DNA from: Eledone cirrhosa
Taxonomy: Eukaryota
NCBI GenBank assembly: GCA_964016885.1
Contig: OZ024741.1
Span: forward strand, 367,102,001-367,166,000
DNA length: 64,000 nt
Direction of reading: 5' to 3'
In this document: positions 10,101 through 16,100 of the stretch, piece after piece
Position numbering within the stretch: the first letter of the stretch is position 1
How the letters are laid out: every line of letters starts with the position of its first letter
Made by a program: the position numbers and the translations under genes
The notes under the pieces: generated by a model
Database searches by the model: none
Told to the model about the DNA's origin: nothing
Seen by the model: only the letters and a program-made list of their open reading frames with translations

Positions 10101-13100
10101 CCAATTTACAGTGTAACCATGGCAGCATTTGAACGTAAAACCTAGTGTCATGATTAAATTCTTGTCCAGTGCTTTACCAATACTGCAAATCCACACCAGC
10201 TTAATAATGAGAAAGTTAATTTAACATCTATTTTCCATGCTTGCATGATATAGACATCTGTCAGGTGCTGAGGTGAAACAGGTCAGGTGACAAGATCCTA
10301 CTTGTACTCTTTGTTTGGCTTGATGCTCTTTCTAAAACTATCCACTTTACAGTGTATACTAGGAGTATTTTAAAATGACCAGTACTACTGCCTTACTGTT
10401 TTTGTCATGCCACTAAATCCCTCAATTCTCAATTAATTTTGAAAATCATTGGCAGTGTCTTTCATTAGAAATATGGTCATGAGGAGGTTAATTGGGAATT
10501 TTTACTAATCTAAAGGTTTTGGTTGTTGAGAATTTATCCCCATTCTTCTCCGTATAGTATTTGCTTGTAAAAACCTGTAGATAAAAAGTATTAGCACAAC
10601 AATCTCTATCATAAGGATTGTACAAGGATTTTTTTTTTTGCACTTAGTTACACAAATTCTGTGCTCTCTCAAAAACATTCTAAAATTTTCATTTAGAATT
10701 CCTAGAATAAAAATGTAGGCAGTAAATGTTCTAAAATGTATTTTCTCTATTTATCTTTGTGTGTCATTATCATCATCAGCATTTTACATCTGTTTTTCAT
10801 GCATGTGCGAGTGACATGTGTGTAAATATATCATCCACAAACATAGCTTTGTTACAATTTGATACAGAATCTAAATATTGCTTATTCCATCTGTAAAACA
10901 ATGGGTTATGTTCTATAATAGCTATTTTAGAATTTTAAGATGTCAGAAATACACTATTTTGCAATACACCACACCCAGATGTGTACAGGAAGCCCGGTAG
11001 GGCTCCATATATACTATGTACTATAACTAAATTCCCATTCAGCACATATATATGTATAGCATGTGGCTTAAAGCTGCTACTATTCTAAGACTATTGCTAA
11101 AATAGACCCAGGAAAGAAATGGGTATCATATTAATCTTTTCAAGCTGTTTCATAGATATAGAACCTATGATAGAATAAGTACTGGACATCTAAGATTGTC
11201 TATCTCAGAGATACCAACATCACACGATCTGAACCAATTAATAGAGGCCCTTAACTTCCATATAGCTTCTTTTTTTTTTACTTTACTTACTTTCCACACA
11301 TCTGATGAGATAGCTGTATGTCTTAAAACTGCTGGGAATAGGGGAATGAGTTAGATTGTAAATATAAATACCACACTCATACACAGACAGGATGGTCATA
11401 ATATGCTTGAGTAGGTTGACTTGGAGCTAATAAATAACATTGTCAAAGGCATAGCAACCTCCTTAAAGCTGATAGCATGATAAAATGCTCCTTGTAGAGT
11501 GTGGGGAATGTGAGATGTGACCCCTGTCCTGTCCTGTGACCTCCAATTGTAAATACTGACTTGGTCTATGACGACCTGCCCAACCCTTGCTGGCAGGGAA
11601 TACACATTAAATTTTACAGTAGTGTGCAGTTTTGTCAGAGCTACTGCTTGTTATCCTGTCTTAGATATTAATTATTGGCACAGTGGTTTTGTGATTAAGG
11701 TGTTCACTTTACAATCACATGGTTTGGGGTTCAATTTCAGTCTGATAGCTTCGGTAAGTGTCTGTTATTATAGCCTCAAGTTGACCAATGTCCTGAGAGT
11801 GAAATTTGGTAGGCAGAAACTGAAGGAGTCTGTTATATGTATGTGTGAATTTGTATTTGCGTCCCATAACTTAGCAGTTTGATAAAATATGTGCCAGACT
11901 TGATATAAGTATTGGCACTGATATGATCAGCTAAACCCTTTTAAGGTAGTTTCCCAGCATGGCCACAGTGTGACTGAAACCAGTAAAAGAGTAAATATTA
12001 GTAGATGCAATAGTAAGCAGTCCTGCTAGTTATTACTTATCTTATCCTAAATACAAAGTAGTTATAATGAGCAGAGACTGTTCATATGCTCAGCTCTAAG
12101 CAGAGAGGTGATCAGAAAATATTAAATTTCATATTAGAGGAAATGATAGAAGTATACTGTGTAATCTTAGTTACTTTGTTTACATGAAACAGCATTAGTA
12201 AAACCCTCTTGAAAAGTATAAAACATGACTATGACTGCATCACATTATAAAAATATAGTAAAAGAGGTATTATAGATATTTGAATTAATAAACCTAAGTA
12301 TGTACACGTACATACATATATACAGACGTACAGTAGTATTTATATATATATATATACATAGATGCACATATATATATGCACGTATGGATTCACCGAACAT
12401 TTATTATAATGCTCGGTGTGTTTGTAAAAAAACAAACATCCCGTATTAAGCCGTAGTGTCCAGCAACCATCGTTGCTCATTTGTTCAACACTGACAAAGG
12501 AACGCTGTACTAGTTTCAAGCTTATTAGCTATCGTCAGCAACGTATACCTTCCTGCCAGATTGTTGAACGTATATACTTATCTTATGCATATTAATGGCT
12601 AAGTAGCCCAATTTGCATATCGAGTGGGTTAATCAGCCGGGTGCACCGAAAACGATAAACGGAAAAAATGGAACGAAATTTCATTTCCCACTCTTAGTAC
12701 GGCTGTTACTTAAATATAAGTATGTACACGTACATACATATATGTATACAGACGTACAGTAGTATGTATATATATATATACATACATGCACACATATATA
12801 TATATATGCACGTATGGATTCACTGAACATTTATTATAATGCTTGGTGTGTTTGTAAAAAAAAAAAAAACATCCCGTATTAAGCCGTAGTGTCCAGCAAC
12901 CATCGTTGCTCATTTGTTCAACACTGACAAAGGAACGCTGTACTAGTTTCAAGCTTATTAGCTATCGTCAGCAACGTATATACTTACCTTATGCATATTA
13001 ACGGCTAAGTAGCCCAATTTGCATATCGAGTGGGTTAATCGGCCGGGTGCACCGAAAATGATAAACGGAAAAAATGAAACAAAATTTCATTTCCCACTCT

Positions 13101-16100
13101 TAGTTCGGCTGTTACTTAAATATAAGTATGTACACGTACATGCATGTACGTGTACATACTTATATTTAAGTAACCGCCGTACTAAGAGTGGGAAATGAAA
13201 TTTTGTTTCATTTTTTCCGTTTAATTAATAGACCTGTTTTCACATATTTTCTGTGAAATCCTTACAGGATGTTAAAAGATAATACAGCAAATTTTCACAA
13301 TGTCCACTAGTAAAGATACTATAAACATTTGAATTAACAAACTCGTTTTAAGATAATTTTTGCAGGATATTAAAAGTTAAAATTCTGACTAATTACTCTT
13401 AGTCTTTTACTGGTTTCTGTCATTAGACTACTGCCATGCTGGGGCACAGCTCCTAAGGAATTTAGTAACATCAACCCCAGTACTTATTCTTTTAAACCTG
13501 GTACTTATTTTATTGATCTTCATTGGAATGAAACTATTTAAGAAAATTCAGAACATTCTTCACTTTTTTTTCTTTTTTTTTTTAATACTTATCCATGAAT
13601 TCTAGATAGAAAGATTTAGTGATATTGTAGCATTTATGTGGGATGAACATAAACATTGTATTTGTATCTTGTCCCTTATAATCAAGCTCATTTGTTTTTC
13701 AAGTGTTGTCCTAAATTCATATAAAGCAGTAACTGTGATAACATTAATAAGAAACCACTTGATATATAGATTAACTCTTTGATACTAAACTGGCCCGAAA
13801 CTGTCCTGAGTTCTGTGATACAGAACTTTTTATTTTAAAACGCTTATATTTATCAAAACACATTCCATCATAATTTGAATGCAAGAACATTTGTTAAATT
13901 GTTACCAAGAGCAGCTTAACAACGACAGCAAATCCCTTCAAATACTTGATTATTTTCAGAATTAAATGAAATTCATAGGTCTTGTATTTTATTAAAAATC
14001 ACCATTTAATACCTGTTTTTCCATGCTCTCATATGTTGGAAAAGTTGTCAAAAGCCAAATCAGTATTTGATCAGAACTACTAACTTCTCAATTGGGTGGG
14101 GCCCACATCTTGCTTACATATGTTCCAGCACTTTACAGAGTGTACTGGGTGTATTTTATGCCTGATACAACTGTAGAGTCCACAATTTTTTGTTTGACAA
14201 GTTTTCTACAGCTAGACCTCTCCTTAATGCTAAACATAGGGTGCATTGGGTGCACTTTTTGTAACACTAGCACTGAAGAGGTTGCCATGCCCTTGTCTCA
14301 ACTGAAGAGTCATCAACCACTTAAGAGTGCACTGGGTGCATTTTATCATAGCACAAACACTAGGGAAGTTGTCAGTCAGTGACTTGACTGAAAAGCCTTC
14401 TCTTTGAGGGGAATGCCTTGTTCTCAAGCAGATATGTTTAATGGGGTAAGAATAAGAGGCAGGTGTCAAAAGGATATGATCACAAAATGGTTATCCTACT
14501 TTGCTTCACAGGAAGGTTTGATTAGTCTTGCTACCCTATATATATATTTATTTCTCATCCTACAAAGAAGAATAATTAGATTAAGATATCATTTTCTTGC
14601 AAAACCAATTTGTTTACGTGTATGACATAGTTACGAGTGAGAGCTCAAATTTATTAATATCGATTTTTGCTTTTGCTGTTATTGTATTATATATTCTCAT
14701 ATTTCTAAACCATTTCCCCCATTATCTGTTATCTGACGTCCTGTCTTCTAGGCAACTAATTTAAACTGATAGTAGGCATTCACGAAAACAGGTGTAGCAC
14801 TAAATTAGATTCTATTGATATTTTGGTGACTGACCGGGAGAGAAACCGACTAATAACTTCCTTATTAGCTGTTAACAAGATTATCTCCTTTGCAGAAGCA
14901 ATTCTGAAAAATAATGTTATGCTTATATTAACTGTATTGTTAGCTTTAGTTTTGTACTAATTTGACTGGAATTGACTTGAAATTTTGGGGTTTGATTGTA
15001 ATCAGTGGCTGTTAAGTTAACCTTTCTGATACCAAATTACCTGAAATCATTCCTGGTTTTATGATACAAAACTGTCCTTTTTAAAGTGTTTAACCTTTTT
15101 GCCATATTTCTAATAAGTTATCTATGATTTACAACTACTTGATCCTTCAAAACATTTAAGTTTTGCTCCAAACAGCAGCTTGGTAATGAGACAGTAATAT
15201 TACTAAATCCTTCCAAATTCTTGATTATTTTCACAATGGTTTGAAAATCATAGGCATATGATAACAAAATCATTATTAGTTTTGTACAAAGATTTTTGCA
15301 GTGGATTTGTTTTATATTTAACCCTTTTGATACCAACCAAACTGCCTGTTTCTATAAAACAAAATCACCCAGTCTAAATAGGTTTCTATTTAAATTAAAA
15401 CATTCTAACATAATTTTATATAAAACTTTTTTGTTGTTACAATTACTATCTTGTAAAGGCACATGGTTTAGTGATTAAGGTATTCAGCTCATAATCATAT
15501 GGTCATATGTTCAAATTCCTGGTGGTGCATTGTGTCTTTGAGCAAGACACTTTGCTAGCAAAAGTTGTATTTGTAATTCAATATGTCACACTATGTGACA
15601 TGCTGAATCTCCCTGAGAATTATGTTAAGGATACACATGTCTATAGAATGCTAAACCACTTGCATGAGTAGGCTTTTCCATTGATGGAATCAACTGGAAT
15701 ATTTGGTGTTGGAATCGACAGTGCCAACATAAACTAGATTCCACGTTAATTAATTGAAATACAATTACAGCCTAGTTGTGTTCATCATAATGTTTATCAG
15801 ACATGTTAACTTTGTATTAATCAGTAAGAAGAGGAGAAAGTTAAATCCAATCCATTAAACCTTTTGTTGCCATATTTTTAATGAAAAACTCTGCCTATTA
15901 AAATAATTATAGAAATAATCAAGAATTTGAAAGTATTGAACCTTTTTGATATCAACCCACCTGAAACCACACTCTACTATAAGACAAACTTTATTTTAAA
16001 CGGTTTACATCTGAATTCAAACTTTCCATGGTCATCTTATATATGGCCATTTGGTGTTGTGCTCCAAGTAATTAAAAAAAAAATAATAATAATAAAAAAA

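Follow-up and report, generated by a model that had tools for sequence, protein, structure and literature searches.

The closest described relatives of the element studied here are the metazoan non-LTR (long terminal repeat) retrozymes and the Penelope-like elements (PLEs), both of which carry hammerhead ribozymes. Retrozyme RNA circles have been demonstrated in coral, mussel and axolotl, and the same work proposed that the reverse transcriptase (RT) of PLEs copies such circles into tandem complementary DNA (cDNA) (Cervera and de la Pena 2020, PMC7229834), a step that is described as likely in a 2020 review, which also terms the role of the PLE hammerheads a mystery (PMC7761336). More recently, a phylogeny has tied retrozymes to the pseudo-LTRs (pLTRs) of PLEs, with no mollusc among the taxa given as sampled in the accessible text of the preprint (Li et al. 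2026, bioRxiv 10.64898/2026.07.22.740005). The canonical metazoan type I hammerhead, a motif active as a dimer, is set apart from the minimal motif of PLEs (Cervera and de la Pena 2014, PMC4209133). PLEs have a tail at one of their two ends, carry 5' copies in inverted orientation and show a bias towards (TA)n (Craig et al. 2021, PMC8557442). In vitro, the Poseidon protein of Anolis, for which a dimeric state is predicted, cleaves AT-rich DNA and extends both of its strands; reverse transcription starts at two internal RNA positions, and these define the tail (Frangieh et al. 2024, PMC11167929). In this paper, we have analysed a 64,000-nt stretch of the Eledone cirrhosa genome (contig OZ024741.1, positions 367,102,001 to 367,166,000, assembly GCA_964016885.1; hereafter the window, from whose first letter positions are counted), in which an intron of an SRPK gene holds a 927-bp insertion with two hammerhead ribozymes.

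The insertion is a copy of a tandem retroelement that bears hammerheads and lacks an open reading frame (ORF), i.e. a non-LTR retrozyme, with about 25,000 ribozyme copies in the genome. The explanation as a whole, to which we assign a probability of about two in three, is that this retrozyme copy was mobilised by a borrowed Penelope-like RT/GIY-YIG protein acting on an RNA circle, likely a monomeric one. Penelope-type priming at two sites is very likely: the two fixed ends at AT-rich targets described below match the in vitro behaviour of Poseidon, and the tail, the inverted arms and the (TA)n bias are those of PLEs. The template was probably a circular monomer, and we lean slightly towards reading the insertions as fossils of bidirectional rolling-circle target-primed reverse transcription, by a dimer on one ribozyme-made circle for up to ~13 turns. 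The initial annotation of this locus had suggested a Penelope-mobilised retrozyme with a circular intermediate, and the absence of ORFs from the family, its Penelope tail ends and its clonal multimers support that family-level reading. The element class is already known; the genomic footprint of its mobilisation did not turn up in the literature that we searched.

Anatomy of the insertion and its ribozymes

The insertion occupies positions 12296 to 13222, its length being as initially claimed, and is flanked by 13-bp target site duplications (TSDs) that match at 12 of 13 bases (AATTAATAAACCT at 12283..12295 and AATTAATAGACCT at 13223..13235, both on the plus strand). Two head-to-tail units had been recognized, and both stand; overlooked were an inverted 80-nt arm, a 19-nt piece of a third unit and the loss of 27 nt from unit 2. 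Read on the minus strand, the insert consists of unit 2 (12737..13142, 406 nt), in which a 27-nt deletion corresponding to 12548-12574 of unit 1 takes the 5' arm of distal stem I, followed by the intact unit 1 (12315..12736, ~422 nt, subfamily A) and the partial third unit (12296..12314, unit positions 1-19). These make up the long arm (12296..13142, minus strand), the outer end of which lies at the putative 'short' priming site of the family (unit position 19/20). The short inverted arm (13143..13222, plus strand, 80 nt, unit positions 2-80) ends at the putative 'long' priming site, and contains a Penelope-type tail of ~60 nt (13162-13222, plus strand). The head-to-head join of the two arms gives a near-perfect 81-bp hairpin (13062..13223) with 79 of 81 positions matching. 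Units 1 and 2 differ at 10 of 317 compared positions, and the window copy is an ageing, ordinary member of subfamily A. Short-read contigs from public runs, possibly from the same sample as the assembly, cross both the left (11956-12305) and the right junction (13198-13326) without differences, and contigs of runs X1-X3 cover the unique intron as DNA would. No empty site was present among the public-run contigs, in a comparison that took each flank on its own and could therefore not yield a record reaching from one side of the insertion to the other.

Two identical 43-nt hammerhead cores are present on the minus strand, as first annotated: hammerhead 1 at 12502..12544, with a predicted cut after GUA at 12508/12507, and hammerhead 2 at 12935..12977, with a predicted cut at 12941/12940. 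The cuts are 433 nt apart and delimit a monomer of that length (12508..12940, minus strand), the predicted circle. A relaxed hammerhead scan of the 64-kb window returned these two matches, both in the insert, and no others. Helix I has 6 bp, extended through bulges to ~22 bp, so that hammerhead 1 with its extended stem I covers 12483..12569 (minus strand) in four helices; helix II has 4 bp above a U.U, and helix III is the short palindrome ACUAGU. The ribozymes had been called minimal, a label that these helices do not support: they fit the canonical metazoan type I form, and the hallmarks of the minimal PLE hammerhead (helix II of 7-8 bp, helix I of 4-5 bp, G10.1-C11.1) are absent. An Rfam search, which had been proposed as a check, gave no hammerhead family among 55 weak matches (E up to 5); these were microRNA-like matches to the hairpin and the microsatellite, all below gathering score, and were rejected.

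In constrained folding, the double hammerhead is favoured over a pair of single hammerheads, with a gain of 11 kcal/mol for the window dimer and of 4 kcal/mol for an intact young pair. The fold of a single ribozyme is no better than that of shuffled sequences (z -0.49), and the z of -5.6 obtained for the monomer is inflated because the microsatellite is self-complementary. We followed 27 base pairs through 14 variants, picked by hand from subfamilies with identities as low as ~77%: pairing is kept in each of the 378 cells, and a single pair of stem I varies between U.G, G.U and A-U. The ribozyme fold is thus conserved across subfamilies that are ~77% alike overall.

Family-wide structure and clonal multimers

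The 3.0-Gb genome contains 4,586 exact matches to the 40-nt ribozyme string and 25,086 matches to a relaxed hammerhead pattern, with none for the reversed-pattern control of either. For inspection, 150 insertions at 123 loci (145 insertions in a first grouping) were drawn from the ~25,000 copies, using the 30 best BLAST hits, 60 position-ordered stretches of contig 1 and 40 stretches chosen by their long end, and omitting duplicates and the longest array. On copy number, tandem arrays and linkage to a PLE ORF, which the initial annotation had suggested for checking, the outcome was an abundant family with tandem arrays and, in this sample, neither an ORF of its own nor linkage to a PLE ORF. 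The units are short (420-510 nt, with an internal microsatellite), are arranged in tandem and carry one type I hammerhead apiece, and the insertions are dispersed, numerous and bounded by a long TSD where it can be read (13 bp in the window copy and 11 bp in L014; in (TA)n targets it is unreadable), all of which are retrozyme traits. Neither an ORF, an LTR-type structure nor a linked RT was found in the sample, nor was an autonomous RT plus GIY-YIG ORF between pLTRs. None of the one-armed copies (n=64) had an ORF joined upstream; three had weak PLE matches (35-41%), the nearest of which is set apart by its own TSD.

Insertions stop at two fixed points of the unit ~60 nt apart, at ~19-24 ('short') and at 80-82 ('long'). 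Exact junctions of a fixed end with (TA)n number 3,808 (long) and 4,202 (short) genome-wide, and in the sample (TA)n adjoins 102 of 116 long ends and 63 of 83 short ends. Furthermore, 83 of the 150 insertions are two-armed, having the tandem plus inverted, 5'-truncated structure that is typical of Penelope. Their ends pair as long and short in 63 cases, as long and long in 2 and as short and short in none, the remaining 18 having an unclassed end; long is thus combined with short in 63 of the 65 in which both ends could be classed. In 55 two-armed insertions, there was no case in which one arm belonged to subfamily A and its partner to B, and at polymorphic columns 38 of 627 comparisons disagreed within an arm and 63 of 756 between opposite arms, against 39% expected. 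Judged by these variants, both arms of an insertion appear to derive from one template. At the arm junctions, 23 of 47 show an overlap of 1-9 nt, and the others short gaps.

Several further observations concern this architecture. A younger sister subfamily (L131 8354-9501, L193-L242), ~77% identical to the window unit and 99% identical within itself, with units of 470-510 nt, has two ends likewise. In the two-armed insertion at L228 (2405-6034), 25 nt of the left flank recur in inverted orientation in the right flank, which suggests a template switch during repair. At L146 (C1:19.62 Mb) and L147, entire two-armed insertions have been tandemly duplicated together with their flanks, i.e. by later local duplication. 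Twin priming in the style of L1 was rejected as the origin of the inverted arm, which has a fixed end and overlaps the other arm in unit coordinates; self fold-back was rejected for the window copy, where the inverted partner measures 847 nt and the arm 80 nt.

Young insertions contain up to ~19 near-identical units across both arms, whereas older copies mostly have 1-3. Examples are found at C1:84.36 Mb (8+7 full units, the cores of which are identical), C4:109.9 Mb (13+5 units), C2:176.98 Mb (10+5 units) and C21:23.74 Mb (8 units), and, in the subfamily of the window copy, at L229 (2+7 units with 0-3 differences). Three loci share one core haplotype and have private microsatellite spacers (modal lengths 113, 115 and 131 nt), each of which recurs along the insertion to which it belongs. 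At C1:84.36 Mb the barcode is 184 nt long; the assembly contains it nine times, all within this locus and distributed over its two arms. A single slip in one monomer would explain such a private barcode, whereas the transcript of a linear array would need a parent that is absent from the assembly. No indel is present at the cut site in the listed units of the young insertions; such a clean joint is expected from a ligated circle or from an uncut multimer.

Probable template, candidate driver and rival explanations

The proposed cycle would start with the transcription of tandem copies, the transcripts of which would cleave themselves as a double hammerhead, and the released monomer would be ligated into an RNA circle. 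A borrowed Penelope-like RT/GIY-YIG protein would then introduce a nick into either strand of a target made of (TA)n or rich in AT, and from each nicked strand it would prime a cDNA, the two starting at fixed RNA sites ~60 nt apart. Two RT protomers would roll round one circle, and the two cDNAs would be joined head-to-head through short microhomology. For the window copy, one cDNA would have made two turns and reached 847 nt, its counterpart having stopped after 80 nt, with ageing afterwards.

A number of observations weigh against this explanation. The 5' ends of insertions show no enrichment where the ribozyme would cut (3 of 159, vs 3.4 expected; 6 of 67 vs 2.7 in long arms and 2 of 59 vs 2.4 in short arms), which is compatible with a circle and just as much with a linear RNA that stayed uncut. 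Linkage is no lower between variants on opposite sides of the cut site, and there is no chimera signature. The clonal loci had been chosen among the top hits, and polishing of the assembly could have smoothed out differences between their units. Some insertions are not clonal: one variant alternates along L228, subsets of units share variants in L287, and the arms of L280 differ in haplotype. In addition, L045, L074 and the 48-unit array L076-078 show dimer or tetramer duplication after insertion. As regards the ribozyme, the active folds sit 7.7-11 kcal/mol above the predicted minimum, the covariation rests on a single pair, and pairs changed on both sides do not exceed the shuffle control (474/500). 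It has also been reported that the ribozyme is dispensable for Poseidon insertion in vitro (PMC11167929), and that just 1 of 9 Xenopus retrozyme dimers was cleaved (bioRxiv 10.64898/2026.07.22.740005). Finally, 23 stretches downstream of PLE-type ORFs scored near shuffle level when aligned to the unit tail, and the best candidate driver, described below, shows no significant DNA similarity to the unit. A collision idea was dropped, long-arm 5' ends lying in the upstream tail in 16 of 67 cases vs 11.6 (p 0.11).

Penelope-type insertion at two sites could also proceed from a linear template, either an uncut multimer or a short, terminally redundant RNA that is re-read by template switching, with the ribozyme idle. 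An uncut cleavage site lies inside 117 of the 145 insertions, the 5' ends ignore it, some insertions are heterogeneous, and the main substrate of Poseidon in vitro is described as unprocessed RNA (PMC11167929). Such a template nevertheless seems unlikely to us: no array from which the barcode of the 15-unit insertion could descend is present in the assembly, sibling insertions carry spacers of their own, and the ribozyme fold has been conserved across subfamilies of an element that has no ORF. Repeated template switching on a redundant RNA may still have played a part.

Two other explanations dispense with multimeric synthesis or with the independence of the family. Local duplication, put forward in the preprint of Li et al. 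2026, would have elements insert as one or two units and multiply later in the manner of a satellite, the window dimer being one such duplication. The higher-order repeats at L045, L074 and L076-078, with dimers or tetramers as their period and private mutations in common, are of this kind; the longest clonal arrays, however, are the youngest, have expanded on both inverted arms and carry either no mutations or singletons alone, and older copies mostly have 1-3 units, so that we regard duplication as a quite improbable source of the family's multimers. Still less credible is the view that the family consists of 5'-truncated pLTR ends of an autonomous PLE and has no life of its own. A tail, an inverted arm and a (TA)n bias are ordinary PLE traits (PMC8557442), and the inspection covered a sample of the ~25,000 copies, but unit follows unit with no ORF between, the 64 one-armed copies have none joined upstream, and a unit lies directly 3' of the ORF in 0 of 50 fetched GIY-YIG stretches. 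Moreover, the ribozyme of the family is canonical, whereas the motifs in PLE-containing stretches include minimal-type ones. Beside these points, the array L076-L078 (C1:51.77-51.79 Mb) is an observation in its own right: it comprises ~50 units over ~22 kb in a four-unit higher-order repeat, and the reference ribozyme string is kept in 13 of 48 units, several units having core changes.

The preferred explanation, a retrozyme circle copied by a borrowed PLE protein, calls for a driver. PLEs are abundant in the genome, and scoring 150 of its 10,595 GIY-YIG candidates gave no sequence-linked partner by GIY-YIG matches, tblastn or tail alignment. A very young autonomous PLE family is nevertheless present (L318 2969-7329 at C2:216.79 Mb, and L319-L323), with a period of 4,202 bp. 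Most of its full copies have two overlapping frames (476 and 775 aa) with RT and GIY-YIG, its linker CxxxxCxxC is of the Neptune/Nematis type, and all 40 scored copies are 100% identical over 381 nt. The hammerhead in its pLTR has a U.U at the base of helix II and a palindromic helix III, a build similar to that of the unit, and the family also has two-armed copies and two (TA)n-flanked ends ~50-60 nt apart. From this architecture and age, we guess that the L318 family may be the driver, for which it is a candidate. Other hammerhead-like motifs, some of them minimal with a long helix II, were seen in PLE-containing stretches at L100, L113, L117, L123, L126, L128, L130, L135 and L137.

Host locus, related systems and biological meaning

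The location in an SRPK intron holds: on the plus strand, the exon 5' of the host intron (8588..8704, SRPK2 residues 18-53) and that 3' of it (19335..19421, residues 56-83) match consecutive stretches of SRPK2. The antisense orientation of the window ribozymes has no special meaning, since two-armed insertions point both ways. Because the SRPK pre-mRNA carries these ribozymes in antisense, it is predicted to remain uncut, and the only effect on it would be the added 81-bp hairpin. If the minus strand of the window copy were transcribed, its RNA might set free the 433-nt monomer, but unit 2 is damaged, and we consider it doubtful that this copy still yields circles.

The insertion was said to have landed in an older miniature inverted-repeat transposable element (MITE). 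An older dispersed repeat is indeed its host (12180..13360, plus strand, split into 12180-12295 and 13223-13360), with 704 first-look candidates in the genome, and it runs uninterrupted across the insertion site in 9 of 11 fetched copies; the MITE label is not borne out so far, as no terminal inverted repeats are common to the 5 copies examined of these 11, the full extent of the repeat being unmapped. The repeat has an internal 42-nt sub-repeat (12256-12293, 13301-13342), which is reflected in contigs by joints that step back 42 nt. A short dispersed repeat, which we take to be SINE-like (short interspersed nuclear element), is represented by two pieces in opposite orientation, at 11953-11994 and 13399-13510; these mimic terminal inverted repeats around the site and were possibly the source of the MITE reading. 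Elsewhere in the SRPK introns, open frames at 29416-30042, 33182-33946, 40448-41116 and 42100-42844 resemble C-termini of RTE-type long interspersed nuclear elements (LINEs).

The family resembles the metazoan non-LTR retrozymes described in PMC7229834 in its ORF-less, low-GC tandem units with one canonical type I hammerhead each, its thousands of copies ranging from dimers to long arrays, and its long TSD where present; the U.U at the base of helix II recurs in HHR_Amex2 of axolotl, and the weak palindromic helix III in HHR_Amex1. It differs from the retrozymes described there in that its units measure 420-510 nt and enclose a microsatellite, in that it targets (TA)n, and in that its insertions are two-armed and inverted, end at fixed long and short sites and include clonal barcoded multimers; RNA circles have been shown for those retrozymes and are predicted for the present family. 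With endonuclease-bearing (EN+) PLEs, such as Poseidon PAc (PMC11167929) and Neptune/Naiad (PMC8557442), it shares two fixed 3' ends, a structure of tandem and inverted copies, insertion into (TA)n or other AT-rich DNA and a hammerhead upstream of the tail; unlike them, it has no ORF, a tail of ~60 nt rather than 30-40, a canonical rather than minimal ribozyme, and up to ~19 units per insertion. Non-autonomous Chlamys elements, e.g. MRC1, are likewise PLE-dependent and form multicopy head-to-tail insertions, but as described in PMC8557442 they are without canonical hammerheads and generally resemble the 3' end of their partner, whereas none of the candidate partners scored for the present family shares sequence with it. 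In the literature, subscription journals, repeat databases and supplements aside, we found no description of retrozyme insertions that are two-armed, end in a tail and consist of barcoded clonal units; the word 'inverted' is absent from the main text of PMC7229834, and the accessible text of an octopus repeat annotation (PMC13282606) makes no mention of ribozymes.

The reinsertion of animal retrozymes has so far been a matter of hypothesis, with circles as RT templates and PLEs as drivers. In E. cirrhosa, the insertions show the PLE tail signature with strict long/short pairing, and their barcoded clonal multimers point to a single monomer as the template. The value of the window copy lies in its 13-bp TSD, which is readable because the target is not a microsatellite. 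Thousands of two-armed copies plant long inverted repeats in introns, which are a likely source of double-stranded RNA. If true, the rolling-circle reading would provide direct genomic evidence for a circle-based life cycle of retrozymes, and would explain the Penelope tail and the inverted arm by one mechanism, in a genome with a passenger that is still active, as is a candidate driver. As the young passenger subfamily and the young autonomous PLE family occur in this one genome, the model can be rebuilt in vitro.

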